This document shows positions 44,960 through 62,887 of a stretch of DNA of 64,000 nt, one piece after another (within the stretch, counting starts at the first letter, position 1; every line of letters starts with the position of its first letter). The stretch is from positions 576,001-640,000 of the forward strand of contig CAVRVY010000001.1 in NCBI GenBank assembly GCA_963724765.1, given 5' to 3'. Position numbers and translations under genes: made by a program. Source of the stretch: an uncultured delta proteobacterium. GTDB taxonomy: Bacteria; Desulfobacterota; Binatia; Binatales; Binataceae. The notes beneath the pieces are model-generated. The model was not told the origin of the DNA. It saw only the letters and a program-made list of their open reading frames with translations, and made no database searches.

Positions 44960-46174
44960 CTATTCCAATGCTCCCTCCATTACCAGCGCGCTTATGTGCT
45001 CATCATCGTAACCGAGGATGCTCTTCAGTACATAATGGTTGTGCTGTCCAATCATCGGTGCGGCGCGGTCGACTCGGGCTGGGGTACGGCAGAGCCTGAA
45101 CCGTGAATTCTCAACCCAAGTTGTGCCCAAAGTTGGATGGGGCACTTCGACAAAGTGGCCGCGGTGGCGCAGTTGCTGATCGGTGTACATGTCGGCAGCG
45201 CTCTGCACGGCGTGCGCCGGGACCCCCTGCGCCTGCAGTCTACATTCCACCTCATGCGAACTGAGCCGACGCGTCCATTGCGCAAGGTGTTGGTCAAGTT
45301 GTACCCGGTTCGCCTGGCGTCTATTGAAGCTCCTAAATCGTGGATCGTCCGCGAGCTCTAGTTGATCCATTACTTTACATAGTGAGCGCCAGTGCTCTTC
45401 GGTGCGGCACGCGACCGCAACCCAACGGTCTTCTCCCAGTGCCGGATAGACACCGTGAGGTGCATGGTATGCATCGTAGTTAGCGGCCGGACCCCATATC
45501 CGGTGATTAACGACACAATCGAGGAGAGCCGGGGCTAAAAAGTGGAGGGCCGACTCGGCCTGCGCTTGGTCGATATACTGTCCTTTGCCAGTGCGCTTGC
45601 GATGGATTAGCGCTGCGACCACAGCTACCGCCCCGAAGCGCGGTGCTATGTAGTCGGTATATGCACTGAACGGCCCTGAAGGCGCCCGATCGGGCCATCC
45701 CACCAGATTGTAGAAACCTGAGAGAGCCGCTGCGAGATTGCCGAATCCAGCAAACGACGAAAGCGGACCTGTCTGCCCCATCAAGCACGTGCTGATCATG
45801 ATAATATCAGCCTTGATCTTGCGCAGCGATTCGTAATCCAACCCCCAGTTACGCATCGCTTTGGGTGAGAACGCCTCCGCGACTACATCGGCCCATCGCA
45901 CGAGGTCAAGCACGACGCTGCGAGCTCCGGGTTTAGATAGATCCAAAGTAATCCCGTACTTGCCGGCATTGTTGTTGCCCCAAAGCCCGGAATTTTCGGG
46001 GGCTGTGTTATTGTCCTGAAAAGGTCCGATAGTACGTGCCGGATCCGGGCGACGCGTCGACTCTATCCGCACCACCGTCGCACCATAATCCGCCAGCATC
46101 CGGGTGATTCCTGGTCCTGCTAGCACCCACATAAAATCTAGAATCTTGACGTCCTCCAAAGGAAGATGGCCCAT
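44960..46174 (-). CDS. Family III (CaiB/BaiF) CoA transferase
   Basis: PLEDVKILDF.W.LAGP…N.GK..ITLDL…YTDY…APMIGQHN. Confidence 0.93.
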   Translation of the reverse strand: MGHLPLEDVKILDFMWVLAGPGITRMLADYGATVVRIESTRRPDPARTIGPFQDNNTAPENSGLWGNNNAGKYGITLDLSKPGARSVVLDLVRWADVVAEAFSPKAMRNWGLDYESLRKIKADIIMISTCLMGQTGPLSSFAGFGNLAAALSGFYNLVGWPDRAPSGPFSAYTDYIAPRFGAVAVVAALIHRKRTGKGQYIDQAQAESALHFLAPALLDCVVNHRIWGPAANYDAYHAPHGVYPALGEDRWVAVACRTEEHWRSLCKVMDQLELADDPRFRSFNRRQANRVQLDQHLAQWTRRLSSHEVECRLQAQGVPAHAVQSAADMYTDQQLRHRGHFVEVPHPTLGTTWVENSRFRLCRTPARVDRAAPMIGQHNHYVLKSILGYDDEHISALVMEGALE

Positions 46175-47415
46175 CAGACTACCCCAAATCGTTCAAGTTC
46201 GGCGAGATCACGCTCGCTCAGGCCTAACTCATCGACGTAGATCTCGCGATTATGCTCTCCTACTCTCGGCGGTCGGCGTCGGTATGCAATAGGCTGTGCC
46301 TCGAAGCGCGCGAAGGGCCCAGGATAGTGCACCGATCGTCCCAACTCAGGGTGTTCCACCGGCTGCCAGTATTCTCGTTCCTTGAACTGTGGATTATCCA
46401 ATACCTCGTCGATCGTCGCGACGGGTGCGATAAGTAAGGTATTCGCGCGCGCAATTTCGAATAGTTCGGCCTTGGTCTTGCTGGAGAAAAAGCGCGAGAC
46501 AACGCTCTTCACTCGCTCGTACTCCTCCATAGGCTCCTTGCCCGAGAGCAGCAAGTCTCCGTACGCCAGCCAATCCTTATCGCGGGTGGCCTGATCGCAC
46601 CCACCGTTCTGGTAGATGTAGTTCATCAGCTTCTGAGTAAACGGACCGAATGCCGTGCCAAATAAGAAAACACAGGAGATCTGACCGTTCTTAGCCGGCC
46701 ACACCAGCGGAACCCGAATTGGGCCCATCCGAATTCCGCCTGCCATGCGCCGCATCTCGTTGGCCCGAAGAGGGGTTGCGAGGGTCGTCGATTGCGCCGC
46801 GAGGCTGACGCTCTCCTGCGCCGCGACGTCGACATGTTGTCCCAAACCGGAATCAAGCCGCTCATAATAGGCAATGAGCGCAGCCGCGGCTGCGTCAACT
46901 GACGCGTGCAGATATGCCTGCGGCACACTCATACGGATTGGCGGCCTATCCTCGTCACCGTAAAGAATTAGCGGTCCGCCTGCCGCCATGATGACCAGGT
47001 CGGAATCAGCATAGCCGGCCTTTGGGCCGTCCTGCCCAAAGGGCGTGATCGAAACATAGACGAGAGACGGATTATGAAGGCTTAGGTTGCGGTAGCTTAT
47101 TCCGATTCTCGCTGATTCCCCTGGAGGGTCGGACTCGATGAGGAAATGTGCATCCCTGGCAAGCCGATGAAAGATCGCGCGCCCTTTTTCGGTCGCCAGG
47201 TTAAGCGTGATGCTGCGCTTATTGCGATTGTAGGCACACCAGTAAATCGAGCGATCCGGATGCGTCTCATCGTTGAAGAAGGGCGCGAGTCTTCGTGCTG
47301 GCGAACCCCCTGGCGGTTCAACCTTGATTACCTCGGCGCCCAGATCGCCGAGAATCTGACCGCACAGAAATCCCCGTTCAGTGGTAAGATCGAGCACCCT
47401 GCATCCCCTCAGCAT
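46174..47415 (-). CDS. Family III CoA transferase, second (BbsE-like) subunit
   Basis: LRGCRVLDLT…LGDLGAEVIKVEPPGG…NRNKRSITLNL…PPRVGEHN; translationally coupled to the next gene. Confidence 0.93.
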   Translation of the reverse strand: MLRGCRVLDLTTERGFLCGQILGDLGAEVIKVEPPGGSPARRLAPFFNDETHPDRSIYWCAYNRNKRSITLNLATEKGRAIFHRLARDAHFLIESDPPGESARIGISYRNLSLHNPSLVYVSITPFGQDGPKAGYADSDLVIMAAGGPLILYGDEDRPPIRMSVPQAYLHASVDAAAAALIAYYERLDSGLGQHVDVAAQESVSLAAQSTTLATPLRANEMRRMAGGIRMGPIRVPLVWPAKNGQISCVFLFGTAFGPFTQKLMNYIYQNGGCDQATRDKDWLAYGDLLLSGKEPMEEYERVKSVVSRFFSSKTKAELFEIARANTLLIAPVATIDEVLDNPQFKEREYWQPVEHPELGRSVHYPGPFARFEAQPIAYRRRPPRVGEHNREIYVDELGLSERDLAELERFGVV

Positions 47416-47420
47416 GGCTT

Positions 47421-47476
47421 GTTGGACCCTCTTTTAGACTGCGACTAAGTTGGACCCTCTTTTAGACTGCGACTAA
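47421..47476. repeat. Exact 28-bp tandem duplication covering the RBS
   Basis: GTTGGACCCTCTTTTAGACTGCGACTAA x2. Confidence 0.9.
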
Positions 47477-47859
47477 GAATGATGATAATTTCGTCACCCT
47501 GGGAGTACACCAAGTTCTTTCGATGGCGGTTCTCTCGCCGGACATCGGCCGATATCGGCCGCGGGTAAGGCGGTGCTACGCTTCGGACATCGGCCCTTAG
47601 CCGTAGCCCAAGGGCCTTCTCAGCTAAGCCATTCCGCTATGCAAGAGCATGCCAGCCATAACTCCCTCGGTTCGTGATGCGTTCGACCTCCCAGCCGCCG
47701 AGACTGGGTCAGCTCTACCGGGGTGAGTCGCCTGGCCGAAGCAATGTTGGGTCGGCTTCAGATCCTGCCAAGGTCTCGGCTGGCAGACAAAGAAAAAGCG
47801 AACCTAACGCACCTCGAGTGTATCTTGACAACCATGTGACAGACACGGACACTTCGAGT

Positions 47860-48720
47860 CCACCTGCTATCATCCGCTGCTGCTGTTCAATCGCGAAGGT
47901 GACTGCCTCGCCGCCAATACGGCCCGGCAACGTCCACAGCGCCGATGGCTGGGAGGAACTGCTGCTGCCGGAGATTGAACTGCAACAGCGGCTGGGCAAC
48001 GAGGTAGTCTTCCGCGCCGATGCAGCTTTTGCCAGGCCGGAGATCTACGAGGCGCTGGAAGATCGGGAGGTGAAGTACGCGATCCGCCTCCCAGCGAACG
48101 ACCATCTGCAGCGGAACATTACGGAGTTGTTGACGCGGCCAGTGGGACGGCCGAGCCACAAGCCGGTGGTCCGGTACAAGAGCTTTCTGTATCAGGCAGC
48201 GAGTTGGAAGACGTTGCGACGGGTGGTGGCAAAGGTCGAGTTCCATTGCGGGGAATTGTTTCCCCGCGTGGGGTTCATCGTGACCGGCCTCGCGGCCTTA
48301 AGCCGGGCGGTGGTGCGGTTCTACAACAAGCGCGGGACAGCAGAACAATGGATTAAAGAGGGCAAGCAGGCGGTCGCGATGACGCGGCTTTCCTGTCACC
48401 GCTTTCGCGCCAGCGAGGTGCGGCTGTGGCTGAGCCTGATTGCTTATAACCTCGGGAACTTGTGGCGGCGGCTGGCGCTTCCAACGCAGGTTGCCACCTG
48501 GTCGCTGACCAGCTTGCAGCAGGACACAGGGAGAAGTGTCTGCGAATTCGGTCTGAGAAGCGGCAGTTCCGGGTATCGTATGTCAGCGCGAGGCAGAACT
48601 GGTCCGTTGCGGGGCCGTGGAAAGCCCTTTGGACTCAAAATCAGGCTCGAACTCTCCCTTTGACAAACCGTCTCATGTCGGCGCGACGATGCAAAGGATT
48701 GAAAATGGAAATCCCAGATT
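47860..48720 (+). mobile_element. IS1380 family remnant
   Basis: RPGNVHSADGW…FRADAAFA…YNKRGTAEQWIKEGK…; 5' part and an internal segment deleted. Confidence 0.88.
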
Positions 48721-48863: not shown

Positions 48864-50867
48864 ATGCTTAAGCATGATGATTGCCGCAAACGGGCAACGA
48901 AAATGGTGAGCGCGGTAACACGTGAGTGGGAACGGTTTGTTGCCGGCGGCGTTATAGATGCGTGTGTTGTGAGATCCCCCGTAGCCGAATCCTGGCAGCG
49001 CTGTCGAAAGGCAGGCTTAAGATCTGATATACGAGTAGCTCCTGCCGTCCTGGCGGCCGCAGAGCTTGAAAATCGAAAAGTCCGAAATCCGGCCTATCGA
49101 GTATCTCGGGACGTCATGCTTCTTGCGAGGGAATGCCTTCCCAACAACGATACTTCAGTAGTGATGCTCATCGATCAAGACTGCCATCTGTTGGACATTA
49201 GGGGAAGCAGCAAAATTATCGCTGCATGTGAAGAAGCGGGTGGGGTGCTCGGCTCCAGATGGAAGGAGTCAGACACAGGGACCGACGCGTTGTCTCTGTG
49301 TCTGAGGCTTGACTTGGCGGTCTATATAAATGGCTATGAGCACTACTGTGAAATCGGACATCGCTGGTTGGGCGCTGCTGCTCCGATACACGCTCTAACA
49401 GACCGCCGGCTATTAGGAGCGATAAGCATGTACGCAAATGGGCAAGTTGAACCCGCCCGACTCCATAGTCTAGTGATTCACTTCGCGTCGCTCCTGGAGC
49501 ATGAATTGCTCCTCGAGAGCAAGACCCGACAACTCTTCAGGCTCGAGATGTTAGAGAGATATCGCACTCGTTACCGACAGGACACAATCTTCTCGGTGAC
49601 GGAGTCGGGTGAAATAGAGGGTGAATTACACGATTGGGTTTTGCCTGATGACTCTATCACGAACTTACGCGCACAGGCAGAAAGGGCGATTTTGTTCGGC
49701 CAGGGAACAGGAGAGTTGACAGGGGTTGTCCGGAACCCCAAAGGATCACTGCTGGAGGGACGCTTCTTTGCTGCCGTTCGGAACCAAGAGCTTATAGGTT
49801 TCGTTGCAATTGTACCCAAACCGCAACCGCGGGGTTTTCAATCGCGAACTCAAGCTTCATATTCAGCTTCGTACTGCTTTAAGGATCTTCTGGGTTCCTC
49901 GTCTCAGTTGGAGCATTCTATTATCGAAGCTGAAAGATACGCATTATCCGATCTGCCAGTTTTGATCTCGGGTGAATCCGGCACGGGCAAAGAGCTACTT
50001 GCACACGCGATTCACAATGCCAGTCCTAGACGAAGTCGACCATTCGTGGCGATTAACTGCGGCGGCGTCACCGACGAATTAATATCCGCTGAATTATTCG
50101 GTTACAGCGACGGCGCTTTCACCGGTGCGGCACGCGGAGGCAAGATCGGGAAACTTGATCTAGCCCAAGGCGGCAGCATTTTTCTCGATGAGGTTGAGAG
50201 CATGTCGCCGTTTATGCAGGCTGCCCTGTTGAGGATCTTAGAAGAGCGTTTCTTCCATAGAATCGGAGATTTGGAGCGCCGCCCGCTCGACGTACGGTTC
50301 ATCGCAGCAACTAATGTTGACCTCTTGAGCAAGGTACAGGCTGGATCCTTTCGACTCGATATATACCACAGACTCGCTACCTTAACCCTGTCGCTCTCGC
50401 CATTACGGGAACGTAGGGCGGACATTCCCCGTCTTATTCAACACTTCATGCAAGGCCACGCCAGGGATCTCACTGAAGAAGCGCGTTTAAAATTGCAGGC
50501 GTGTTGTTGGCCAGGCAATATCAGGCAGCTCAAGAACGTTTTACATAGAGCGATGTTGCGCTCATTTAAAGAACAGATAACAGTAGAAGATCTTGGGGAC
50601 GATTTGTCCGACAGAGATAACACAAGGAGCGACGGTTCTTGCTGTCTGGAAAGTAATCCACCGGTTCTTGGGGAGCGCGTCGATTTTCTCAGTAATAGCA
50701 ACAATAGCAGCGAGGAAAAAGATCGAATCGTCAAGGTGCTCGCATCGTGTAATTGGAACGTGAGCGCCGCCGCCATAAAACTAGGACTTCACCGCGTTAC
50801 TCTGTGCAGAAAGCTTCGGAGACTGGAGGTACGAAAGACCTATTCATCGACAGGTAGAAATCTGTAG
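48864..50867 (+). CDS. GAF-domain sigma54-dependent activator (AcoR-like)
   Basis: SWQRC GAF start, GESGTGKE, ELFG…GAFTGA, FLDEV, WPGNIRQL, Fis-type HTH. Confidence 0.95.
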   Translation: MLKHDDCRKRATKMVSAVTREWERFVAGGVIDACVVRSPVAESWQRCRKAGLRSDIRVAPAVLAAAELENRKVRNPAYRVSRDVMLLARECLPNNDTSVVMLIDQDCHLLDIRGSSKIIAACEEAGGVLGSRWKESDTGTDALSLCLRLDLAVYINGYEHYCEIGHRWLGAAAPIHALTDRRLLGAISMYANGQVEPARLHSLVIHFASLLEHELLLESKTRQLFRLEMLERYRTRYRQDTIFSVTESGEIEGELHDWVLPDDSITNLRAQAERAILFGQGTGELTGVVRNPKGSLLEGRFFAAVRNQELIGFVAIVPKPQPRGFQSRTQASYSASYCFKDLLGSSSQLEHSIIEAERYALSDLPVLISGESGTGKELLAHAIHNASPRRSRPFVAINCGGVTDELISAELFGYSDGAFTGAARGGKIGKLDLAQGGSIFLDEVESMSPFMQAALLRILEERFFHRIGDLERRPLDVRFIAATNVDLLSKVQAGSFRLDIYHRLATLTLSLSPLRERRADIPRLIQHFMQGHARDLTEEARLKLQACCWPGNIRQLKNVLHRAMLRSFKEQITVEDLGDDLSDRDNTRSDGSCCLESNPPVLGERVDFLSNSNNSSEEKDRIVKVLASCNWNVSAAAIKLGLHRVTLCRKLRRLEVRKTYSSTGRNL

Positions 50868-51458: not shown

Positions 51459-51499
51459 GCTACAATTGTAGCACTTCATGTGTAGTATTATCCGCTACA
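51459..51499. promoter_or_regulatory. Putative enhancer (UAS) sites
   Basis: Palindromes GCTACAATTGTAGC and TGTAG-N9-CTACA, ~50-90 bp upstream of the sigma54 site. Confidence 0.55.
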
Positions 51500-51549
51500 A
51501 AAGAAGCCATTCTTGACTCACGCAAGCATACTCTATTCTGAAACGTGCG

Positions 51550-51631: not shown

Positions 51632-52678
51632 ATGAAGTTTGAGTTCTTCACAGAATGCCAGACCGCCACGCGGAGTTATTACGATCGTTATTGGCAGATA
51701 CTAGAGGAAGTGCAGCTCGCTGACCAATTGGGCTGGGATTCCTTCGGTACCTCTGAGCAGCATTTTACCCCTGAATTGTTCACTACTTCTGCCCCGGAGG
51801 TTTTCTACGCGGCCGTTGCCATGCGAACAAAACGCCTCCGGCTGCGGCACGGCATTCGGTTGCTCCCCTATCGGGTGAATCATCCGTTACGCATTGCGGA
51901 GCAGGTGGCGATGCTTGACATCCTCAGCAATGGGCGTGCAGAGCTAGGCACCGGCAGAGGTAATACTCTTCGTATGCTGCGAGCGTTTGAGGTCGATCCT
52001 AAGGAGTCGCGTGAGCAGTGGGAAGAAGCTCTCAGCATGATTCCCAAAATGTGGACACAGGATCCATTCTCCTGGGAGGGAAAGTACTTTCATATACCGC
52101 CCACCCACGTGGTCCCAAAGCCCATTCAAAAGCCGCACCCCGCAATTTGGACAGCCGCAACCAATCCAGACATGTACGAAATCGCGGGTCATAAGGGAAT
52201 CGGCCTTATGAGTTTCAACTTTGGTACGCCGGAAACCGCCGAAAAAGACATCGGGATTTATAGGAAAGCGATCGAGACCGCAGAACCGGTTGGGGACTTC
52301 ATCAACAACAAGGTATCGTGGTTTCTAATGTGCTTATGTGCGGAAACTACTGAATACGCGAAACGGCTGGCCAGAGAGCCGATCATGGCCTTCTTGAACG
52401 AGGCAGTCAACATTTACGAAGAATTGGGGGCCACGGGTGCGAAAGACTACGAGTACATGGCTAAAGTCTCGAAGATGAGGAAGCTGGTTGATTTTGACTA
52501 CTTAGATGCTGCCGACATGTTAGTCGTCGGTGATCCTGTTGTCTGCCTGGAGAAGCTTAGAAAATACCAGAAGGCCGGTGCAGACGAAGTGATTCTTCGC
52601 ATTGACGGCTACCCGCACGAGAAGATTAAAGACTCAATCCGACTCCTCGCCGAGCATGTCTTTCCTCATCTTCGTTGA
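51632..52678 (+). CDS. LLM-class (luciferase-like) flavin-dependent monooxygenase
   Basis: ADQLGWD…SEQHF…HPLRIAEQVAMLDILSNGRAELGTGRG…PKPIQKPHPAIW. Confidence 0.95.
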   Translation: MKFEFFTECQTATRSYYDRYWQILEEVQLADQLGWDSFGTSEQHFTPELFTTSAPEVFYAAVAMRTKRLRLRHGIRLLPYRVNHPLRIAEQVAMLDILSNGRAELGTGRGNTLRMLRAFEVDPKESREQWEEALSMIPKMWTQDPFSWEGKYFHIPPTHVVPKPIQKPHPAIWTAATNPDMYEIAGHKGIGLMSFNFGTPETAEKDIGIYRKAIETAEPVGDFINNKVSWFLMCLCAETTEYAKRLAREPIMAFLNEAVNIYEELGATGAKDYEYMAKVSKMRKLVDFDYLDAADMLVVGDPVVCLEKLRKYQKAGADEVILRIDGYPHEKIKDSIRLLAEHVFPHLR

Positions 52679-54895: not shown

Positions 54896-55396
54896 ATGGC
54901 GAAGATAGGAGGCACGCAAGGCCAGCCCGCGGACTTGGCGGCAATAGATGAGCTGTACGAGAGGTGGCGCTCGGCGTGGTTGAAACTGGATCCGAAACTG
55001 ATGTTGTCGTGTTTCGATGGCGAGTTCGATGGTTTAATTTACCAGTCTGAAGAGAACCCTGAAGCGCTGTTCGCCTATGCGGATCTAGTGAAATACTGGA
55101 ATAACGCGCCGAGCATTCTAACCGGGGTTTCCGAATGGACGGATTTGAATAAAAAGGTCGTTTTCCTCGGAGAGGACTCGGTCGTCATCTGGACGCTGCT
55201 GCAGACTAACCTAAATCTGAAAACCTCTCCGCCCCAGGACCTTGGCGGTAAGCTGCGTTGCGTGCTAGGGCTACGCAAAGCCAAGGGGAAGTGGCTAATA
55301 GTGCATTATAACGAGTCCCGTCAGTTTTTGATTAGTCCGGTCCCGGATAAGCTGTGGAGCTTTGGGGTCGACTACACTACAAATGTGCGGCACTAA
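54896..55396 (+). CDS. NTF2/SnoaL-like protein
   Basis: AAIDELYERWRSAW..LD…LRK.KGKWLIVHYNES. Confidence 0.8.
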   Translation: MAKIGGTQGQPADLAAIDELYERWRSAWLKLDPKLMLSCFDGEFDGLIYQSEENPEALFAYADLVKYWNNAPSILTGVSEWTDLNKKVVFLGEDSVVIWTLLQTNLNLKTSPPQDLGGKLRCVLGLRKAKGKWLIVHYNESRQFLISPVPDKLWSFGVDYTTNVRH

Positions 55397-55443: not shown

Positions 55444-56745
55444 ATGGAGCTCTGTCTTAAGAGACTGCTTGTTGCTTTGCCGGTTGCAGCATGTGTCGCC
55501 CTATTAGCATCTGCTCTCTTCGCTGTGACCCCTGTCGACCACAACCCCGCTGCGCTTTGGCCGGACAATGTCGCTTCCCTTTCGAACGAAGATTTAGCGG
55601 CACTCGTTCGTAAGCTGCAACCTCTGGTGCCTACAGTCATCGCGGGTAAGCCGTACAGTATTACGGCTGGAGAAACACCAGGGACCTATACGGTAAAATG
55701 GGGTAACGAATCGATGTTATGGAAGCCGGAGCCCTGGATGGAGCCAGCCTATGCCAAGCTAGGTCCCTATTACTACCTACAATGGCTAAGGAAGGGACTA
55801 CCTTATCGCTGGGAGCTACCGTTGGACCAGAGAACCAAGCTCACAGGGCCGGATTACATGTCTCGCTGCCTCGCATTTACCTACTACATGGCTGATGCTG
55901 ATAACGGCTGGGATCAGTGGGAACAAAAGATATATTTACCAGACGGGAAGCTTCGCACGGAATCCAAGTTTTTCGAGGCCTATGGGACACCTTTGTTCGG
56001 CCGTGGACTTCAGTACTATAGCGGGTCGGAGGCTAAAAAGGTTAATCGCCTTTACGCGTGGGAAGCGTTTGCTCCCGAGGAGTTACGTGGAGAAGGTGGT
56101 ATCACTACAGAATACAGGGATCCAAATGTAATTCCCGAGGACCTACTGTATTTGCCCACGGTCCGTAAGACAAGACGTTTGGCTGGGGCGGTGGCGCAGC
56201 AATACTTTCCGGGCACTATATTTCGCTACGAGGATGTCACGTTTAACACCGCATTGCCACAGCTGAATTATAAGGTTGTAGGGTATAAACTATTTGACGC
56301 ATCGCAGGCGAAGCTTCATGGCTATAGAGCTGACGCCTACCCGGAAGCTAAAAGAATTGGCGATGATGGAGATGTTGCGGTCTTAGTAGAGATAACGCCT
56401 AAACCAGGAGTGAGCTGGTGGTATGCGAGACGAGTAGTCAGCTGCGGGTTGATGGAATTAGCCCTATCTCAAGATCAAGTATTTGATGCCGGCGGTCGAT
56501 TGATTCGACAAAGCGCGCAGCAAGTCATGACGGGTAGTGTGCTCCATATGGGGAGTCCGGATGGCCCACCCGCGCCGGATTGGTGGACGACATGGGGTGC
56601 GGAGAGCGTAGAGGAGTTCAGCACGGGTTTCGAGCAGGATGCGTGGGTACAAACGGGTGGGTATAACGCTCCAGCTCCTGCGTCGTGGTTCACTGTGGAC
56701 ACTTTAGCACGGCAGCCGATGACGCTTAGCCAATGGATACGATGA
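55444..56745 (+). CDS. DUF1329-like periplasmic (LolA-like fold) protein
   Basis: Signal peptide; APEELRG…D.LYLPTVRKTRRLA…ED. Confidence 0.7.
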   Translation: MELCLKRLLVALPVAACVALLASALFAVTPVDHNPAALWPDNVASLSNEDLAALVRKLQPLVPTVIAGKPYSITAGETPGTYTVKWGNESMLWKPEPWMEPAYAKLGPYYYLQWLRKGLPYRWELPLDQRTKLTGPDYMSRCLAFTYYMADADNGWDQWEQKIYLPDGKLRTESKFFEAYGTPLFGRGLQYYSGSEAKKVNRLYAWEAFAPEELRGEGGITTEYRDPNVIPEDLLYLPTVRKTRRLAGAVAQQYFPGTIFRYEDVTFNTALPQLNYKVVGYKLFDASQAKLHGYRADAYPEAKRIGDDGDVAVLVEITPKPGVSWWYARRVVSCGLMELALSQDQVFDAGGRLIRQSAQQVMTGSVLHMGSPDGPPAPDWWTTWGAESVEEFSTGFEQDAWVQTGGYNAPAPASWFTVDTLARQPMTLSQWIR

Positions 56746-56830
56746 TTTCCAGGGGCGGCGACCTCTCAGGATTACCCGGAGGGATTCGGGAGATGGCGCT
56801 GTTTGATGGCGCAGCGCCAGCGAGAAAAAC

Positions 56831-59329
56831 GTGGCTGAGGTGAAGGCATGGACGGACGAATATCGAGGCGTTGACTTCAGCCTCGCTCGGCTGGCGCGTT
56901 TTTTCATTCGACAGCGCAAGCTGGGGATCGCGCTGCAAATAGTTATTGCGGCGCTTTGCATCTGGTCGTTGACCACCATGCGTCTACGTGACGACCCTAA
57001 TGAGTGGGCGCCGCCGAGCGACCCGCTGGTTAAACTTAATCATAAAATAATGGGAATGTTTGGCGGGGGCAACTCCGTCAGCATCGAAATAGCGGTGAGC
57101 CAGGGCACCATCTACACCGTCGATAATCTGAACACCATCAAGGAGATTACAGACGCACTCTACCTGGTACCCGGTTGCATACCTTTCGCCGTTAGGTCGC
57201 TGTCGACATTAAGCAGTGAACATTATGAAATTACCAACCTTGGCGCGCCTGATGAGACCTTCCTGATCACTCCTGTAATGCCACAGTTTGTGCGCTCGAG
57301 CGCAGAAGTCGAACAGATAGAAGCAGCGACTCTGACGAGCCCTTTGTTGAATGGAGTTTTCGTTTCGAAAGATGGGAAAGCGGCTTTAATCCGGGCGGAC
57401 TTTCGTTCCGAGGTTCCACCTGGCGCCCGTGTGCAAATGGAAACCACCGAGCCAGTGGCCATTTACCGTGCGGTAACCTCAATCCTTCGCCGTTATCAGC
57501 GCCCCGGTGTTAGTCTGCGTGCAGCGGGAACCCCCATCATCATAGGTTGGGTTAACAGCGTAGGTCTATGGTACATTGCTGGTGCGTTCACGTTCTTCTT
57601 AGCAGTTATCGCGTGCATACTATGGTACGCGTTTCGTAGTTACAGCGCCGTCCTGCTGCCATTGCGAGTCGCCCTGCTCGGCGTACTTATGGGGTTCGGG
57701 CTTTATCGCCTCTTCTTCGGGAAAGTTATCTATTCGGCGGCCGCACTGCTCGCACCTTTCATAATAGTTGCTGCGGGCGCCTGCCATTCGGTGCAATTTC
57801 TGACGCGCTTTTTCTACGAGGAATATCCTGCTCGTCGAAACGTGGAGGAGGCAATTGTCAGTACCTTCGTTTCTCGACTGCGACCCATGTTAGTGTCTTT
57901 ACTATGTGATGTCATTCCGTTCGCTGTTATGGCGACTATTCCATTCGAAAATGTCCGAGCCCTCGGAATCGTAGCCGCTTTGGGTTTATCTTCTTTGACG
58001 ATCGATGAATTCGCCATGATGATCCCCGCGCTTAGTTCTGTAACCTTGCATGAACTCGAACGGGTGGGAAGGCGGACCGTCGCGCGGCACACTCGGCGAT
58101 TCGACAAAGTATTAGCGGCTACCTTGCGACAAGTCCTCAGTAGCAGAAACCTAATGCTTTCAATCATCGGTATCGGTGCGCTTGTGACGGTAGGGGGCGC
58201 TTGGATTGTTGGAAGAGCGACGATTGGCCAGGACAATACGTATGCTATTCATAACTATCTGACAAGATCATGGAAGTACAGTGACATCTATTTGATGGAA
58301 CGCGAAATCAGCAATCGCTTCCATGGTGTATACCCGATGATGATATTGGTTGAGCCGGACACAGCGGGAGTCAAGGCCCTGGAACAACCTCAGGTAGTTC
58401 GTGGAATAGATAGGCTGGCGACGTTTATAGCGCAGCAACCTCATGTCGGCAATGTGGTGAATCTTGCTTACCTGGTAAAACTCAATAATGCCTTTATTCA
58501 CGATGACGAGGAAACATATCTCCGCGTGCCAGGCTCGGCGTATTCCTTGGGACAGATATTGCTTGGGATCGCCGACCGCTCCCCAGGAGTATACTCATGG
58601 TTATTCACGAATGATCTAAGCTCGTGCGTGATCATCGCCTATTTGGACAGCACGAGCCCGCAGGTGGTCGAGCATGTTATGCGAATCAGTCAAAGCCGGG
58701 CAGGGAGCCTTTTTAAGGGTTTTCCAGTGAAGGTACAAGTCGCGGGAGGCTCGATTGGCATCGCCTCCGCGTTTAATCACAACGTAAGGTATTGGTTACT
58801 AGCGGGAAGCCTCTTGGGGCTCGGTGGGACATTTTTGCTTTCGGTTGTGTGCATTCGATCCGTTTCTCTTTGTTTCATTTTGTTAATTCCGCTCGTTATG
58901 AGCATGGTACTGGCACTGGCAATCATGTCACTTGCCGGGGTTGAGCTCAATTCGAACGCCATCTCGGCTTTGGCGATCGCAAGTGGGGTCGGGATAGATT
59001 CCGAGGTGTATCTTCTGTACCGCGTTCGAGAGGAGTTCAGGCGGCTGCGAGACTTTAGAGAGGCGCTGGTGCAGGGATACGTCAAAATTCGGCGCGCCCT
59101 CCTTGTATCGAATGGCGCACTCATTTTCGGTTGTTGGGCTTTGATTCCGGTTCCTCTATATATAGGCTATGTCGGTTTTGGAATGGGGCTGGTGTTATTG
59201 TCGTGCTTCATTATGAGTGCGATCCTTTCGCCGATTTTGTGGAACTGGTTCGGAGAGCGAGCAGTTATCGGGAGCGATATAGGCACGGAGTCGACGACGA
59301 GGGTAGGATGGAGAGGCGTAGCCGGATGA
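56831..59329 (+). CDS. MMPL/RND family transporter
   Basis: Twofold 1+5 TM architecture, FGGGN, HSVQF..RF.EE, GVGIDS..Y…R.REE. Confidence 0.9.
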   Translation: MAEVKAWTDEYRGVDFSLARLARFFIRQRKLGIALQIVIAALCIWSLTTMRLRDDPNEWAPPSDPLVKLNHKIMGMFGGGNSVSIEIAVSQGTIYTVDNLNTIKEITDALYLVPGCIPFAVRSLSTLSSEHYEITNLGAPDETFLITPVMPQFVRSSAEVEQIEAATLTSPLLNGVFVSKDGKAALIRADFRSEVPPGARVQMETTEPVAIYRAVTSILRRYQRPGVSLRAAGTPIIIGWVNSVGLWYIAGAFTFFLAVIACILWYAFRSYSAVLLPLRVALLGVLMGFGLYRLFFGKVIYSAAALLAPFIIVAAGACHSVQFLTRFFYEEYPARRNVEEAIVSTFVSRLRPMLVSLLCDVIPFAVMATIPFENVRALGIVAALGLSSLTIDEFAMMIPALSSVTLHELERVGRRTVARHTRRFDKVLAATLRQVLSSRNLMLSIIGIGALVTVGGAWIVGRATIGQDNTYAIHNYLTRSWKYSDIYLMEREISNRFHGVYPMMILVEPDTAGVKALEQPQVVRGIDRLATFIAQQPHVGNVVNLAYLVKLNNAFIHDDEETYLRVPGSAYSLGQILLGIADRSPGVYSWLFTNDLSSCVIIAYLDSTSPQVVEHVMRISQSRAGSLFKGFPVKVQVAGGSIGIASAFNHNVRYWLLAGSLLGLGGTFLLSVVCIRSVSLCFILLIPLVMSMVLALAIMSLAGVELNSNAISALAIASGVGIDSEVYLLYRVREEFRRLRDFREALVQGYVKIRRALLVSNGALIFGCWALIPVPLYIGYVGFGMGLVLLSCFIMSAILSPILWNWFGERAVIGSDIGTESTTRVGWRGVAG

Positions 59330-59536
59330 GAATCAGACTTGGGAAGTGCGGATTGTCATTCGAGAGAGTTTGTCAAAGATTCGATGCGACGTTGCCCGTG
59401 CGGTTGCAAGGTCGAGCAGCGTGGTGGGTAAGGTCAGTTAAGCGCGGTCGAAATGTGCGGTCGCGTTAAAGGCTGAATGCGTAAGTGTAATGGCTCGGTA
59501 TGGAGAATATGCGGAGGACGAACAGTATAGATAGTC

Positions 59537-59854
59537 ATGCCAGTGCCGCCCTTCGATACGTCTGTGGCTGACGAGTTTCGTGCTAACCCATTCGGTAAGC
59601 ACAGCCCTGCGCTGCAACGCGTTCTCAACATTATGCGTGGCGCGTCGGTTTCCGACAAGTACGTATTGATCTGTGTAAAACCCTATCAAGAATGGGTTCT
59701 TGGTCAGCTTGCCGGACAGCCGGGAGTGCCAGTTCGAGTGTTTTGGGAGCATCGATTCAATTCTATCGAAGGGGCTGAATGGTTTGTATTCAAGCTACGT
59801 TGGAAGGCGTTGACTGGCGAAGCTCTCGAGGATTCAGGCAAGCGGGCAGTTTAG
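59537..59854 (+). CDS. dmfA1: N,N-dimethylformamidase small-subunit-like protein
   Basis: EF.ANPFGKHSPALQRVLN.MR…EAEW.VF.LRW-type motif, immediately upstream of the large subunit. Confidence 0.75.
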   Translation: MPVPPFDTSVADEFRANPFGKHSPALQRVLNIMRGASVSDKYVLICVKPYQEWVLGQLAGQPGVPVRVFWEHRFNSIEGAEWFVFKLRWKALTGEALEDSGKRAV

Positions 59855-59875
59855 CCGTTGGTGGGTTGACTACGT

Positions 59876-62155
59876 ATGGAGAATGTAACCAAGACGGTCT
59901 TCGGTTATGCTGATCGCTGGAGCGTGCGACCCGGCGATCAACTTTCCGTGAAGGTCAGTTGCGCGACTGGGAAGACGTATCAGGCACGGCTCGTCCGCGT
60001 TGTCCATGGAGATGCAAATCCCGCGGGACCGGGCGTCAGGTTAGAAGCCATACCCTCGGGAATCGACGGGCATTATCCTGCGCGCCAGCAGTATCTACGT
60101 GCTGGCTCCTATGCTGTGATCCCACCGACGATGCAGCTGAATCTGCGGACTGGCTTCACTGTTCAGGCATACGTCTGGCCGACGATGCCGGCACGTAATG
60201 ATCAGACGCTGCTTTCACTTTGGGATGATCGAAACCAGGCTGGACTTGTTTTCCAAATGGATCATACCGGCGCAGCTTCGCTCGTTCTGGGGAATGGCCT
60301 CGGTGGGAAGGAGGTCTTTTCGACCGGCAAGCCGCTCCGCGGGAGAGAGTGGTACCTGATTTCAGCGAGTTACGACATCAAGGCGCACGTGATCTCAGTT
60401 TGCCAACGACCACTTAGCGTCTGTAATTTCTCTGAGGACGGAGCGTACGTAACGCGAGCGTGTACCGCCGGGAGCTTCGCCTGCCCAGGCGGCACCCCGC
60501 TGTTATTAGCCGCTCGTCTGTCGGTCGACGGCGCGTCCAACAAAGCTGACAGCTGCTTCAATGGCAAAATCGACCGACCTCGTTTGGCGAGGCGGGCGCT
60601 CAGTGAAAGTGAAATAGTGCGATTGGCAGCATATCGGATACCGGCAGATCTTCAGACCGATGTCGTTGCAGCATGGGATTTCAGTCAGGATATCTCCACG
60701 ACCACGATCCGTGACCTCTCCTCTAACCGGTTGAATGGAGAACTGATCAACCTGCCGGCGCGCGCAATGAAGGGCGCTAATTGGGATGGGCGCGAAATGT
60801 GCTGGCGCCACGCGCCGGACGAGTACGGGGCGATCCATTTTCACGAAGATGACCTTTACGACGCGGGCTGGCAGACCGATTTCATTCTTTCTGTTCCAGA
60901 TGACCTGAGGGGCGGAATCTACGCAATCAATCTTATCGGAGACGATGATGAGGACTTTGTACCGTTCGTAGTGCGGCCTAAGCAAAGCAAAGAGCGCAGC
61001 AAACTAGCTTTCCTAGTCCCCACCGCGAGTTACATGGCCTATTCGAACAATCACCTTGCGCTCGACCTACCTCTTTTCGAGGCGGCCTGCGATCATGTTT
61101 CTATTCTTTATCCTGGTGACGTTTTCCTTCAGAAACATCGCGAGTTCGGTCTTTCCGCATATGACACACACGTCGACGGTAGCGGGGTCTGTTATTCTTC
61201 ATACCTGCGTCCGGTACTGAACATGCGCCCGAAGTATGCGAGCCCGTTGGGTGGTCACGGCTCTTCGCTCTGGCAGTTTAATGCGGATACACACATCATC
61301 GATTGGCTAGAAGCAAACGACTATGCGTATGAATGCTTGACCGATGAGGATCTCCATTTCGAAGGCTCGCGAGCTCTAGACCCCTACTTGGTCGTTATGA
61401 CAGGAACCCATCCAGAGTATTGGTCACAGGAGATGTGGGACGCACTCGAACATTTCAAGCGTAGGGGCGGGCGCCTTATTTATATGGGCGGTAACGGTTG
61501 GTACTGGCGTATAGCTTTTCATCCGACGTTGCCAGGCGTGATCGAGGTGCGACGCGGCGAAGGGGGCACGCGAACGTGGGCCGCAGAGCCGGGAGAGTAC
61601 TATCACAGTTTTACCGGAGAGTATGGTGGCCTGTGGCGGCGAGTGGACAAACCGCCGAATATAATGTGTGGCGTCGGCTTCACAGCGCAAGGTTTCGACG
61701 TGTCGTCATATTACGTCCGTAAAAACGGTAGTTTCGATGCGCGTGCTGGCTTTATCTTCCAGAATGTCCGAGACGATGAAACGATAGGAAACTTTGGTCT
61801 TATCGGCGGTGGTGCCGCCGGGCTGGAATTGGACCGTGCGGATGCCCTACTCGGCACCCCGCCTCACGCGCTGGTTCTTGCCTCCTCTGTGGGGCACTCG
61901 AATGCGTACCAATTTGTGGTCGAGGAGCTGCTGGCGACCGGGCCTGGGACTGGTGGCACAGAGAACGCAATGGTGCGAGCCGACCTGGTGTTCTTCGAGA
62001 CGTCGGCTGGCGGAGCCGTGTTTTCAACCGGCTCCATCGCATGGGCGGGAAGCCTTTCGCACAACAATTACGACAACAACGTATCCAAGATCACCACCAA
62101 CGTACTGGATCGCTTTCTGGATCCTACTCCGTTCGAGGTAAACAGAAACACATAG
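59876..62155 (+). CDS. dmfA2: N,N-dimethylformamidase large-subunit-like amidohydrolase
   Basis: GYADRWSV.PG…GD.NPAGPG, LamG insert, YGAIHFH.DD, PTASYMAY.N, GLS.YD.H.DG, TGTHPEY, GGNGWYW, AAGLELD. Confidence 0.9.
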   Translation: MENVTKTVFGYADRWSVRPGDQLSVKVSCATGKTYQARLVRVVHGDANPAGPGVRLEAIPSGIDGHYPARQQYLRAGSYAVIPPTMQLNLRTGFTVQAYVWPTMPARNDQTLLSLWDDRNQAGLVFQMDHTGAASLVLGNGLGGKEVFSTGKPLRGREWYLISASYDIKAHVISVCQRPLSVCNFSEDGAYVTRACTAGSFACPGGTPLLLAARLSVDGASNKADSCFNGKIDRPRLARRALSESEIVRLAAYRIPADLQTDVVAAWDFSQDISTTTIRDLSSNRLNGELINLPARAMKGANWDGREMCWRHAPDEYGAIHFHEDDLYDAGWQTDFILSVPDDLRGGIYAINLIGDDDEDFVPFVVRPKQSKERSKLAFLVPTASYMAYSNNHLALDLPLFEAACDHVSILYPGDVFLQKHREFGLSAYDTHVDGSGVCYSSYLRPVLNMRPKYASPLGGHGSSLWQFNADTHIIDWLEANDYAYECLTDEDLHFEGSRALDPYLVVMTGTHPEYWSQEMWDALEHFKRRGGRLIYMGGNGWYWRIAFHPTLPGVIEVRRGEGGTRTWAAEPGEYYHSFTGEYGGLWRRVDKPPNIMCGVGFTAQGFDVSSYYVRKNGSFDARAGFIFQNVRDDETIGNFGLIGGGAAGLELDRADALLGTPPHALVLASSVGHSNAYQFVVEELLATGPGTGGTENAMVRADLVFFETSAGGAVFSTGSIAWAGSLSHNNYDNNVSKITTNVLDRFLDPTPFEVNRNT

Positions 62156-62339
62156 GTGTTCAAGCTCTATGGCGATAGATTGTAAACGCAACTTGGCATA
62201 CGAATAAGCCTGGTTTAGTATTAACTCTCAGCTGGTATGAGTGACGCGGGAAAAGTACTAAAATCCGAGCACGTGCAGCATCGACTCCCTATAAGGTCCA
62301 GGGATGGAGTGCTTTTTCCAATCAGGGAGCGGAACTTAG

Positions 62340-62458
62340 AAGGTTGCGGAAAAGGTGTTTTTGACGCCTGACAACATTGATAGAAGACGCACTCTGATGA
62401 TCGTAGTAATGCTCACTCTTCGCCGAAATCGTCTTTCGCTGGGTTTTTCCGCAACCTG
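62340..62458. mobile_element. 119-bp MITE with IS5-type ends
   Basis: AGGTTGCGGAAAA…TTTTTCCGCAACCTG with TTAG direct repeats on both sides. Confidence 0.8.
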
Positions 62459-62482
62459 TTAGAGAGGAGGGTCCTCAATTGT

Positions 62483-62887
62483 ATGACAAATAAAAGACGA
62501 ACCACAGAAGCTTGCACTGCAATCTTGGTAATTCTACTGGCAAATTGTGCAGTTCCTTCGGCGCAAGGTGAAGCAAAGCCAGAGCCAGTGGCGATCCTAA
62601 ATATGGGCGACATAAACATGTCTACTATGGCTCCGGCAAAGGTCACTATTCGAGTAGGCGATACCGTTGAATGGATAAACTCAGGCGCTAGGATTCATAT
62701 GGTTCGTAGCCTTCTTGGCAGTCCACAGTTTCGTAGCAAGTATCTGCGGCCAGGCGAGAAGTTCGAGTACAAGTTCACCCAGCCAGGTACGTACCGATAC
62801 AGTTGGATGGCGCACATGCAAGGGAAAAGCGCGGAAGGGTATATAGTTGTCCTGCCAGAACCCCCTCTGGCTGGCTCGCGGAACTGA
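62483..62887 (+). CDS. Secreted cupredoxin-fold protein lacking the type-1 Cys
   Basis: VTIRVGDTVEWIN…HMV…LRPGEKF…F..PGTYRYSWMAH; GAGGAGG RBS. Confidence 0.8.
   Translation: MTNKRRTTEACTAILVILLANCAVPSAQGEAKPEPVAILNMGDINMSTMAPAKVTIRVGDTVEWINSGARIHMVRSLLGSPQFRSKYLRPGEKFEYKFTQPGTYRYSWMAHMQGKSAEGYIVVLPEPPLAGSRN

Follow-up and report, generated by a model that had tools for sequence, protein, structure and literature searches.

A probably sigma-54-controlled gene cluster of a Binatus-like bacterium combining a luciferase-like monooxygenase, an envelope cassette and a DMFase-family amidase

Do the monooxygenase, envelope and amidase genes that follow one another in this window (the 64-kb stretch of DNA analysed here) serve one pathway, or are they chance neighbours? 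They form an intact, co-directional cluster of a Binatus-like soil bacterium, probably under sigma-54 control. The reading preferred here, at a probability of roughly one half, is a lineage-restricted sigma-54 catabolic operon with a conserved monooxygenase-envelope core, to which an amidase was added later in one lineage.

The run lies on the + strand and comprises, in order, genes for a luciferase-like monooxygenase (LLM), a DUF6616 protein, an outer-membrane barrel, an NTF2-like protein, a DUF1329-like protein, an RND transporter, the two amidase subunits (DmfA1 and DmfA2) and a cupredoxin-fold protein. This content, order and strand assignment had been claimed in an earlier note on this DNA, and domain searches and ORF positions bear all of it out. 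The same is true of the description of the run as frameshift-free: every ORF has the same length as its relatives, and thus none appears frameshifted. Composition is uniform across the cluster genes, the gaps include 207 bases before DmfA1 and 327 bases before the cupredoxin gene, and none of the run's intergenic gaps contains a terminator-like site. On its right side the cluster is bounded by the remnant of an IS3-family transposase (62947..63516, + strand), which retains the C-terminal part only (NF033516 positions 300-369 of 369; rve_3). The adjacency of the cluster genes may be accidental, because the surroundings are an IS-rich, decayed region and the window abounds in transposases.

A sigma-54 enhancer-binding protein (bEBP) of 667 aa is encoded upstream on the + strand (48864..50867; PF00158, E 3e-59; HTH_8), with the motif GAFTGA at residue 417 and Walker A sequence GESGTGKE at residue 370. 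Its architecture consists of a divergent GAF(+PAS)-type sensor, an AAA+ domain and a Fis-type HTH. The earlier label of GAF-bEBP is sound for the bEBP part (PF00158, GAFTGA), whereas the GAF part is recovered by way of homologues: a Pfam search of the protein itself detects no GAF domain, but PF01590 is present at the equivalent place in 13 of 20 sensor-region homologues, and in eight of these the match passes the gathering score. In a comparison with 1.84 billion representatives, the nearest homologue of the sensor shares 42% identity. DhaR/AcoR-type activators share the GAF(+PAS)-AAA+-HTH architecture of about 650 aa, and DhaR is both the top NCBIfam match of the bEBP and the top PDB match for its sensor (4lrx, matched by the N-terminus at E 0.018); however, the NCBIfam match is far under the equivalog cut-off (265 bits vs 551). 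Sigma-54 bEBPs with a GAF sensor are typical of catabolic operons.

The GG-N10-GC promoter reported earlier is real: a candidate sigma-54 -24/-12 element, CGGCTCGTCTTTTGCT (51550-51565, + strand), is followed after 66 bases by the LLM start codon and agrees with the consensus at 10 of the 12 specified positions, GG and GC being in register. This score is reached by only seven of the 809 GG-N10-GC sites on both strands of the window and exceeded by none, and the element is the best among the cluster's intergenic sites; loose matches to the sigma-54 consensus number 28 in the window against 31 expected, showing no enrichment. About 80-85 bases upstream of the -24 element (about 85 from its centre) there is a perfect palindrome, GCTACAATTGTAGC (51459-51472), the sole perfect copy within 64 kb, with a degenerate copy at 51494-51507 and a spacing of 35 bases between the two. 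Together they represent candidate upstream activator sites (51459..51507, + strand). No second sigma-54-like site is found before DmfA1 or before the cupredoxin gene. Sigma-54 control of the run is plausible.

The envelope genes begin with a 526-aa protein (53208..54788) for which a direct Pfam search gives no match even at E 10. It is placed in a divergent DUF1302 subfamily of outer-membrane beta-barrels, as most of its relatives among the matches listed carry PF06980 (DUF1302), and the structural matches of its AlphaFold model (pLDDT 86.6) are exclusively outer-membrane beta-barrels; it has a signal peptide and a C-terminal Trp. The DUF1329/LolA-like periplasmic protein (55444..56745, 433 aa; PF07044, E 2e-5; LolA_like, E 6e-7) has a hydrophobic N-terminal signal and matches a lipoprotein-sorting protein in the PDB (9tp6, E 1e-7). 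The RND transporter of the HAE3/MMPL type (56831..59329, 832 aa; PF03176, E 2e-25; TIGR00921 HAE3) has about 12 hydrophobic segments and two large loops, and matches HpnN (6wu0, E 2e-5).

The closest known envelope systems are AmeABCD of Castellaniella defragrans and the DUF1302/DUF1329/COG4447/COG1033 cassettes of Shewanella, Kangiella and Pseudomonas, which share with the window a DUF1302 barrel, a LolA-like DUF1329 protein and an HAE3-type RND transporter in one co-directional set, embedded in a catabolic-looking island according to the sections cited (PMC6394551; bioRxiv 10.1101/072470; PMC10866462). Such islands include those for monoterpenes, phenanthrene, p-cresol and steroids, as mentioned in parts of PMC6394551 and bioRxiv 10.1101/072470. 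The window differs in several respects: its barrel has diverged beyond recognition by the Pfam model, a cytoplasmic NTF2-like gene separates the barrel and DUF1329 genes, the operon is led by the LLM and DUF6616 genes, and the cluster has no COG4447/BNR (beta-propeller, Ycf48-like) member, otherwise usual in such cassettes and described as constant in the cited portions of the literature. The earlier proposal of hydrophobic import is right about the type of genes, which are of the hydrophobic-substrate kind, but import is an assumption. AmeABCD, in the cited part of PMC6394551 the sole characterised cassette of this kind, is described there as an efflux/tolerance system, and the characterised HAE3 pumps it covers are exporters; the RB-TnSeq authors, in the section cited, proposed export of a cell-wall component (bioRxiv 10.1101/072470).

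The FMN-type LLM itself (51632..52678, 348 aa; PF00296, E 2e-55) has its best NCBIfam match, below cut-off, in the MupA/Atu3671 family (TIGR04020), and its nearest solved structure is RslO1 (7bip, E 2e-34); no flavin reductase gene is present in the cluster as its partner. The DUF6616 protein (52756..53100, 114 aa; PF20321, E 3e-19) is cytoplasmic, and an Atlas search returns DUF6616 and Darcynin clusters. The NTF2-like (SnoaL_3/DUF4440) protein (54896..55396, 166 aa) has no signal peptide; it matches SnoaL_3 at E 1.7e-4, just above the cut-off, and the Atlas search agrees. At the far end of the run, the secreted cupredoxin-fold protein (62483..62887, 134 aa) matches plastocyanin 1bxu (E 5e-11), scores under the Pfam gathering score and, in the 1bxu alignment, has Trp in place of the type-1 copper Cys, with the axial Met unaligned.

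With TIGR04020 being a secondary-metabolite LLM family, RslO1 belonging to rishirilide biosynthesis and the NTF2-like protein being of the SnoaL / SgcJ-EcaC type, these genes could alternatively be a tailoring-and-export set, in which the LLM, NTF2-like and DUF6616 proteins would modify a lipophilic metabolite, the RND/DUF1302 pair would export it and the amidase would mature or detoxify it. The exporter role of characterised HAE3 pumps also fits. However, no core biosynthetic gene (PKS, NRPS or terpene synthase) occurs among the scanned ORFs of the window and the regulator is of a type typical of catabolic operons, which makes this reading distinctly improbable.

The amidase consists of a DmfA1-like small subunit (59537..59854, 105 aa) and a DmfA2-like large subunit of the DMFase-family Fe(III) amidases (59876..62155, 759 aa; PF20254, E 1.5e-99). 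The large subunit matches 6lvb (E 8e-164) and 8huy (E 1e-157) in the PDB; the small subunit is recognised with a profile built from 79 sequences, which matches Paracoccus DmfA1 at E 4e-9. Like Paracoccus DmfA1A2 (6lvb; plasmid pAMI2), the window has adjacent genes for the small and large subunits and the match is full-length, but tblastn puts the identity at 40.6%, the window's small subunit has only 105 aa where that of Paracoccus has 141, and the window's regulator is a sigma-54 bEBP, whereas Paracoccus dmfA1 is adjoined by a LuxR-type gene. All five catalytic residues of the Paracoccus enzyme, as named in the cited part of PMC7686228, are kept (Y399, Y440, H519, E521 and N547), whereas the substrate-gating Phe693 is replaced by Ala in a loop alignment made without a structure; in none of 118 clade members is position 693 Phe.

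Does the amidase group with true DMFases? In a quick tree with long branches, the window amidase and its 84% relative share a branch of length 0.64 within a clade of 29 rows, and the proven DMFases (Paracoccus pAMI2, Methylobacterium DM1) stand apart on a 1.92 branch. Because it falls outside the proven-DMFase clade and has Ala for the gating Phe693, the amidase is unlikely to be DMF-specific: judged from sequence, it is probably an enzyme that resembles DMFase without being a DMF-degrading enzyme, with a substrate pocket that is probably enlarged. The family includes the N-acetyl-(R)-beta-phenylalanine acylase 8huy, a bulky-amide enzyme, and the acetamiprid amidase AceAB, for which the cited part of PMC11573777 gives no DMF activity; these two enzymes demonstrate that bulky amides can be accommodated by the fold. 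A genuine DMF-degradation island would explain why the enzyme has two subunits and a full 2-Tyr-1-Glu iron site, together with His519 and Asn547. It is nevertheless highly improbable, given 39-41% identity to the DMFases of DMF degraders, the separate clade, the absent gate Phe, the absence of dimethylamine or methylamine genes from the cluster and an envelope system for hydrophobic compounds that would be pointless for DMF.

Relatives of the locus support co-conservation in part. The whole block recurs only in very close relatives, on contigs of 151069, 78260, 39128, 20056 and 8419 bases (84-100% identity), and the relative on the 20056-base contig keeps it, amidase included, with proteins diverged to 84-97% identity. 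In the more distant Candidatus Binatus genomes, the LLM and the DUF1302 barrel appear to be linked. A 110633-base contig of Candidatus Binatus sp. encodes an LLM (MGC2305104.1, 81% identical) and a DUF1302 protein (MGC2305106.1, 69%) whose accessions are two apart, which fits the window order of LLM, one gene, DUF1302; further pairs occur on contigs of 190833 and 59167 bases. Linkage in these relatives is deduced from contigs of equal size and neighbouring accession numbers, not from the DNA itself, and DmfA2 could conceivably lie on the last three contigs as well, because only the longest contig per sequence was reported.

Co-conservation of the amidase with the LLM and envelope genes, in contrast, did not hold beyond the narrow group of near-identical genomes, an outcome that partly agrees with what the earlier note itself had named as refuting its proposal. 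The sample consisted of 80 genome loci, each taken with 10 kb of flanking DNA on either side of a DmfA2 homologue of 46-57% identity. Homologues of the DUF1302-like, DUF1329-like, RND, NTF2, DUF6616 and cupredoxin proteins occur in none of the 80, and an LLM in eight, all of them non-orthologous (24-34% identity). In 78 loci, DmfA2 has a same-strand DmfA1 homologue upstream, and the remaining two end at a contig edge. Genes typically found near the amidase in this clade are those for a molybdopterin oxidoreductase (22/80), an acyl-CoA-dehydrogenase-like protein (20/80), a 2OG-Fe oxygenase (15/80) and ABC transporter parts. It is conceivable, if unlikely, that the genes are functionally unrelated neighbours: the core would serve a hydrophobic non-amide, such as a terpenoid or alkane derivative, and DmfA1A2, a formamidase or amidase acting independently on small N-compounds, would have been placed downstream by IS-driven rearrangement and would simply be read through. 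The IS remnants on the flanks, the transposase-rich window and the gap before DmfA1 all fit, as do the differing neighbours. Yet the 20056-base-contig relative has kept the amidase in the block despite its divergence, the gap holds no promoter-like or terminator-like site, composition is uniform, and the 0.64 branch fits a change of function after recruitment.

The preferred reading, a conserved core with a recruited amidase, would operate as follows. The GAF-type bEBP would sense an effector, bind the palindromes at 51459-51507 and open the promoter at 51550-51565, giving a single transcript that starts with the LLM gene and extends at least to the end of DmfA2. The first layer would be the conserved core of LLM, DUF6616 protein, interleaved cytoplasmic NTF2-like enzyme and AmeABCD-like cassette (DUF1302 outer-membrane barrel, LolA-like DUF1329 periplasmic carrier, HAE3 RND pump), which may oxidise a hydrophobic or amphiphilic compound and move it across the envelope, inward or outward. 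The second layer, in this lineage only, would be the two-subunit Fe(III) amidase, its catalytic centre intact and its gate opened by the Phe693-to-Ala change, hydrolysing an amide or N-substituted formamide larger than DMF and related to the substrate of the core, either before or after the LLM step. Counted against this reading are the 207-base gap before DmfA1, which has no visible ribosome-binding site, the absent COG4447/BNR member and flavin reductase, the quickness of the tree and the origin of the Phe-to-Ala assignment in a loop alignment.

A more specific route had been proposed in the earlier note, by analogy with PyrA/PyrC (pyridine) and TpdABC (tetramethylpyrazine), where genes for a flavin monooxygenase and an amide-cleaving enzyme share one operon: the LLM would open a hydrophobic N-heterocycle to an N-formyl product, the DMFase homologue would deformylate it, and CoA-transferases would activate the acid. 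The amidase and LLM do lie in one co-directional run, the probably enlarged pocket would suit such a product, a flavin monooxygenase gene opens the tpdABC operon (in the cited part of PMC6099782), and the molybdopterin oxidoreductase near the amidase in 22/80 loci has a formate-dehydrogenase-like architecture, as might be expected if enzymes of the clade released formate. However, more distant relatives appear to have the LLM linked with the envelope cassette but not with the amidase, the closest relatives of the LLM are of the MupA/RslO1 type, the cluster lacks a flavin reductase, and the amidase has characterised relatives that act on N-acetyl and other amides too (acetamiprid, N-acetyl-beta-phenylalanine). 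The model systems also differ, being Actinobacterial operons without sigma-54 or envelope genes, with TpdR of LuxR type, as far as the cited part of PMC6099782 describes them. The route is improbable and speculative; the findings do not contradict it, nor do they favour it over other amide substrates.

The last step of that route depends on a divergent pair of family III CoA-transferases on the - strand, 404 aa (44960..46174; PF02515, E 6e-103) and 413 aa (46174..47415; PF02515, E 4e-76). They are about 30% identical to each other, and the stop codon of the latter gene overlaps the start codon of the former, downstream one. The substrate of the 44960..46174 protein is not assignable, because it is far under every NCBIfam equivalog cut-off; versions at least 90% identical occur on the contigs of 20056, 78260, 151069 and 39128 bases. 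The pair is thus present as claimed, but it does not adjoin the regulator: an IS1380 remnant lies between, and no matching promoter or activator palindrome is found upstream of the pair, which weakens the proposed route. Just upstream of this operon is an exact 28-base tandem duplication (47421..47477; 2.0 copies, 100% match). The remnant itself, a truncated IS1380-family transposase (47674..48663, + strand), matches NF033539 at positions 178-395 of 419 (E 3e-48, under the family cut-off) and PF13701 at positions 187-392 of 435, and a second decayed IS1380 copy is located at 33217-33971.

The cluster under study (44960..62887) comprises two family III CoA-transferase genes on the minus strand (44960-46174 and 46174-47415), a gene for a sigma-54 activator (bEBP; 48864-50867, plus strand) and a run of nine genes on the plus strand (51632-62887), which opens with a luciferase-like monooxygenase (LLM; 51632-52678) and closes with a cupredoxin-like gene. 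The gene order and strands described in the earlier note agree with the ORF map, and most of its names were upheld by Pfam and NCBIfam scans, which identified the LLM (PF00296, E 2e-55), a DUF6616 protein (E 3e-19), an NTF2/SnoaL_3 protein (E 1.7e-4), a DUF1329/LolA-like protein (E 2e-5), an MMPL/HAE3 RND pump (E 2e-25) and a DMFase large subunit (PF20254, E 1.5e-99), all encoded on the plus strand. That note had the genes right and overlooked several points: a shortened IS1380 transposase between the CoA-transferase pair and the regulator (47674-48663, covering positions 178-395 of the 419-position profile), an IS3 remnant (62947-63516) at the right-hand boundary, and the absence of both a flavin reductase and a COG4447/BNR protein. 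Since the NTF2-like, DUF6616, LLM and amidase proteins have neither a signal peptide nor a membrane segment, the envelope proteins of the run are interleaved with cytoplasmic enzymes.

In a domain scan of ORFs, the remainder of the window is populated by many transposases, recombinases and split genes, and against this background the intactness of the run stands out. Between 6550-9752, 25084-26154 and 38014-40115 there are a gene with a Mu-transposase C-terminal domain, a large serine recombinase and IS481/IS3-like, IS5-like and IS630-like transposases, and the window as a whole has the look of a hypervariable region laden with IS elements. An OprB-type porin gene (15937-17414) is present as two overlapping ORFs (15937-16587 and 16584-17414) and is probably a frameshifted pseudogene; an ORF carrying an NAD:arginine ADP-ribosyltransferase (ART) domain lies at 516-1292, and a fragment bearing the Shedu SduA N-terminal domain at 21154-21738. 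Two further genes lie just left of the CoA-transferase pair: one for a response-regulator receiver protein, on the minus strand at 42710-43150, and an ORF (43425-44585) for a HisKA kinase with an RsbRD_N domain and no ATPase domain detectable by Pfam. An exact 28-base tandem duplication (47421-47477) directly 5' of the CoA-transferase operon adjoins the IS1380 remnant, which is one of two decayed members of that family in the window; the other is at 33217-33971, and the two are 72% identical at the protein level.

The modules of the cluster are not separable by composition, as judged from per-gene GC and GC3. No paralogues of the operon genes were found within the window, apart from the two mutually matching CoA-transferases and the IS1380 remnants. 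Neither a megablast search of plasmids with the complete 17.9-kb region nor a plasmid tblastn with the barrel protein as query returned a match, and the best plasmid matches of the LLM (at most 40% identical) are uninformative. No Rfam family reached its gathering score between 44000 and 64000.

The regulator contains an AAA+ domain for interaction with sigma-54 (PF00158, E 3e-59), with a Walker A motif and a GAFTGA loop at residue 417. The GAF domain with which it had been credited was not detected by Pfam in the protein itself and is instead visible in its homologues: 2108 relatives of the sensor region were counted in a set of 1.84 billion representatives, and in 13 of the 20 scanned PF01590 occurs at the matching place, eight of them above the gathering score. 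Several of these 20 also have a PAS domain after PF01590. The 764-base spacer between the regulator and the LLM gene includes an ORF (51064-51471) to which the domain scan assigned no family, and a stretch (50868-51450) that has no second copy within the window. It also contains the anticipated GG-N10-GC promoter candidate, CGGCTCGTCTTTTGCT (51550-51565), which is located 5' of the LLM gene, has GG and GC in the -24/-12 register, and matches 10 of 12 consensus positions. This score is reached by seven of the 809 GG-N10-GC sites on both strands of the window and exceeded by none, and looser consensus-like sites are not above chance (28 found, 31 expected). About 85 bases upstream of the site is GCTACAATTGTAGC, a perfect palindrome of 14 bases that has a degenerate copy 35 bases onward and no second perfect copy in the window; by our estimate, a spacer of 764 bases would contain such a palindrome by chance with a probability of roughly 0.05. 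The palindrome and its degenerate copy are candidate upstream activator sites. Because a scan of the window found no sigma-54-like site before DmfA1, the cupredoxin gene or the CoA-transferase operon, and the intergenic gaps of the run contain no terminator-like hairpin, the simplest reading would be that a single promoter serves the whole run.

The envelope cassette includes the barrel (53208-54788; 526 amino acids), which matched no Pfam model even at E 10. PF06980 (DUF1302) is found in most of the barrel relatives listed (43-74% identical), and the protein carries a signal peptide as well as a C-terminal Trp. A structural model made from 41 sequences (pLDDT 86.6, pTM 0.83) matched only outer-membrane barrels in the PDB, with modest TM-scores of 0.35-0.47. 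On the strength of the relatives' PF06980, the signal peptide and the model, the protein can be counted as a DUF1302 outer-membrane barrel. The DUF1329 protein scores 24.5 bits with PF07044 (cut-off 23.1) and 29.6 with LolA_like (cut-off 30), matches PDB entry 9tp6 at E 1e-7 and has a hydrophobic segment at its N-terminus. The RND pump matches TIGR00921 and PF03176, and a hydropathy scan gives approximately 12 segments with loops at 50-245 and 461-656.

A COG4447/BNR propeller is described as the constant fourth member of the DUF1302/DUF1329/RND cassette (PMC6394551; bioRxiv 10.1101/072470). No domain of this periplasmic (Ycf48-like) beta-propeller type was detected in the ORFs, either within the cluster or elsewhere in the window, and the cassette is an AmeABCD-type variant lacking this member. 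In P. stutzeri and P. putida the propeller gene is located elsewhere in the genome, outside the cassette, and by analogy the missing member could be encoded elsewhere in this genome as well. AmeABCD has been reported as an efflux and tolerance system (PMC6394551), and Castellaniella and Pseudomonas mutants in homologous genes are described as unable to grow on monoterpenes or Tween 20 (PMC6394551; bioRxiv 10.1101/2020.07.04.188060; PMC10866462).

The adjacent small and large subunit genes characteristic of DMFases are present in the window, the DmfA1-like gene (59537-59854) lying 21 bases upstream of the DmfA2-like gene (59876-62155). Taken by itself, the small subunit (105 amino acids) is only weakly similar to Paracoccus DmfA1 (E 0.099). 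Of 80 related loci, 78 encode a homologue upstream in the same orientation, with a median gap of 52 bases, and the other two loci are cut at a contig edge at that position; with the search space fixed at one million, the small-subunit profile detects the small subunits of Paracoccus (E 4e-9) and Methylobacterium (E 2e-8). Alignment of the large subunit with 6lvb, the Paracoccus DMFase, spans the entire protein (E 8e-164), and the large subunit aligns almost as well with an N-acetyl-(R)-beta-phenylalanine acylase, 8huy (E 1e-157). By tblastn it is 40.6% identical to the enzyme of Paracoccus aminophilus pAMI2 and 38.7% identical to that of Methylobacterium sp. DM1.

The mononuclear iron site of Paracoccus DMFase is described as a 2-Tyr-1-Glu arrangement of Y399, Y440 and E521, with H519 and N547 essential and with Phe693, from the neighboring subunit, held responsible for keeping out larger amides (PMC7686228). 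In an alignment with the pAMI2 enzyme, all five catalytic residues are kept in the window's protein; Y399, Y440, E521 and H519 are conserved in all 118 relatives compared, and N547 in 116. The Phe693 position is occupied by Ala in the window's enzyme and in a relative 84% identical to it, and by Ile (78), Ala (18), Val (14), Thr (4), Leu (2) or Ser (2), never Phe, across the clade (n=118). A quick maximum-likelihood tree, which has 35 rows and long branches and should be read with care, places the proven DMFases of Paracoccus and Methylobacterium DM1 as a separate pair on a branch of 1.92, and the window's protein with its 84% relative on a branch of 0.64 nested in a starred 29-row clade from Binatia, Rhodospirillales and others. 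The earlier note had named a grouping with true DMFases as a point against its own proposal, and no such grouping is seen. AceAB, a member of the same family, is reported to cleave acetamiprid and to be inactive on DMF (PMC11573777). Because the catalytic residues are kept, the gate is absent, the clade is separate and AceAB has no DMF activity, the window's enzyme, as far as its sequence can tell, is a competent DMFase-family amidase, with the evidence against DMF as its substrate.

All parts of the cluster belong to known families, and the amidase lacks two defining traits of a true DMFase, the Phe693 gate and a grouping with the enzymes of proven DMF degraders. A genuine DMF island is very improbable. 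DMF is a synthetic compound, and among the candidates scored 2418 DMFase homologues reached E <= 0.001. For the entire gate-less "N,N-dimethylformamidase" clade, the DMF name is probably a misnomer.

PyrA/TpdA-type ring-opening pathways encode a flavin reductase partner along with the oxygenase. Pfam and NCBIfam scans detected no such domain in the cluster, and the sole split-barrel FMN protein of the window (12591-13355) is 38 kb away. By analogy with such pathways, the earlier note proposed that an N-heterocycle would be opened to an N-formyl product, which would be deformylated and followed by CoA activation; this appears improbable, with no evidence specifically favoring it and none contradicting it. 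A tailoring-and-export set is suggested by the affinities of the LLM and the NTF2 protein, but a core biosynthetic gene is absent nearby, and this reading is similarly improbable. A term search of the available text of the Binatota genome paper (PMC8262859) returned LadA-type LLMs, and returned none of formamidases, RND pumps or DUF13xx. As for the last gene of the run, its product matches plastocyanin 1bxu at E 5e-11, which bears out a cupredoxin fold; both His ligands are kept, but the Cys is replaced by Trp and the axial Met is unaligned, and it is therefore not a standard blue copper protein with a type-1 ligand set.

The expectation that the amidase would be co-conserved with the LLM and envelope genes was not borne out beyond a narrow group of genomes. 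In 80 genome loci with large-subunit homologues (46-57% identity, 10 kb on either side), the barrel, DUF1329, RND, NTF2, DUF6616 and cupredoxin genes are all without a counterpart. LLMs were found in eight, at only 24-34% identity and in varying positions, a distant CoA-transferase in three and a distant bEBP in two. The usual neighbors are instead a molybdopterin oxidoreductase (22 loci), an acyl-CoA-dehydrogenase-like gene (20), a 2OG-Fe oxygenase (15) and ABC transporter parts. Versions of every operon protein that are at least 90% identical do recur on a shared set of contigs, of 151069, 78260, 39128, 20056 and 8419 bases (84-100% identity over the block as a whole), which indicates that the block is stable in a narrow group of genomes. 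The 20056-base contig, just long enough for the 17.2-kb span, encodes CoA-transferase 1 (90.1% identical to the window's), LLM (96.6%), DUF6616 (92.1%), barrel (90.6%), NTF2 (87.9%), DUF1329 (91.0%) and large amidase subunit (84.3%).

More distant relatives preserve a smaller set. A 110633-base contig of a Candidatus Binatus sp. encodes an LLM (MGC2305104.1, 81% identical) and a DUF1302 protein (MGC2305106.1, 69% identical), whose accession numbers, two apart, fit the window's order of LLM, one gene and barrel. Further LLM/barrel pairs are found on contigs of 190833 bases and 59167 bases (the latter at 60% and 63% identity), with linkage judged throughout from equal-sized contigs and neighboring accession numbers, one contig (the longest) being available per sequence. 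The lengths 110633, 190833 and 59167 are not represented among the contigs reported for the best 120 of the 2418 amidase relatives. This indirect evidence suggests that the LLM and the envelope cassette, together with DUF6616, make up a conserved core, and that the amidase genes may have joined it in the window's lineage; among the sequences compared the full combination is confined to that one narrow lineage. The naming of these relatives also points to a Binatus-like member of the Binatota as the source of the window. The modules may also be unrelated neighbors with only location in common, as the 80 loci would allow and the recurrence of the block in close relatives would not especially favor; this is unlikely, though deserving of serious consideration, and it would make the cluster an ordinary mosaic island.

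A two-layer model of core and appended amidase is taken as the most likely working, at about even odds. In this model, the GAF-type activator would sense a hydrophobic compound and fire the promoter, and the barrel, LolA-like carrier and RND pump would move the compound across the envelope, inward or outward. The LLM would oxidize it, assisted by the DUF6616 and NTF2-like proteins, and the appended amidase, its gate opened, would cleave an amide or N-substituted formamide version of the compound; action of the amidase before or after the LLM is compatible with the model. A more specific and rather doubtful proposal is that the window catches a DMFase-family iron amidase in the course of joining an operon for hydrophobic compounds that is conserved in Binatus. 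If true, it would give the large gate-less clade a natural role in cleaving lipophilic N-substituted formamides or amides delivered by the DUF1302/DUF1329/RND system, with isonitrile-derived or terpenoid formamides and fatty amides as candidate substrates.

No description of an LLM, a DUF1302/DUF1329/RND cassette and a DMFase homologue together was found in the literature searched, the coverage of which was limited. Thousands of genomes contain "DMFase" homologues though DMF is synthetic, and the cluster is a lead to the natural substrates of the clade, for which an opened-gate enzyme, a transport set for hydrophobic compounds and a ligand-sensing activator offer a concrete handle. It also represents a propeller-less variant of a poorly understood envelope system and gives the uncultured Binatota a further catabolic trait that can be tested.

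In some of the relatives these genes are reported in pieces or more than once. The large amidase subunit is present as two pieces of 529 and 245 amino acids on the 78260-base contig (P0003/P0383), the bEBP as pieces of 221 and 326 amino acids on the 151069-base contig (P0368/P0371), and three genes are called shorter on a 1431147-base contig; these are possibly real breaks, assembly errors or start-codon choices. Four LLM paralogues of this subfamily, P0181, P0323, P0301 and P0190 (97.4, 97.1, 81.6 and 64.9% identical to the window's LLM), are all reported on a contig of 78260 bases, which suggests that one relative has multiple copies of the LLM or of the entire core.
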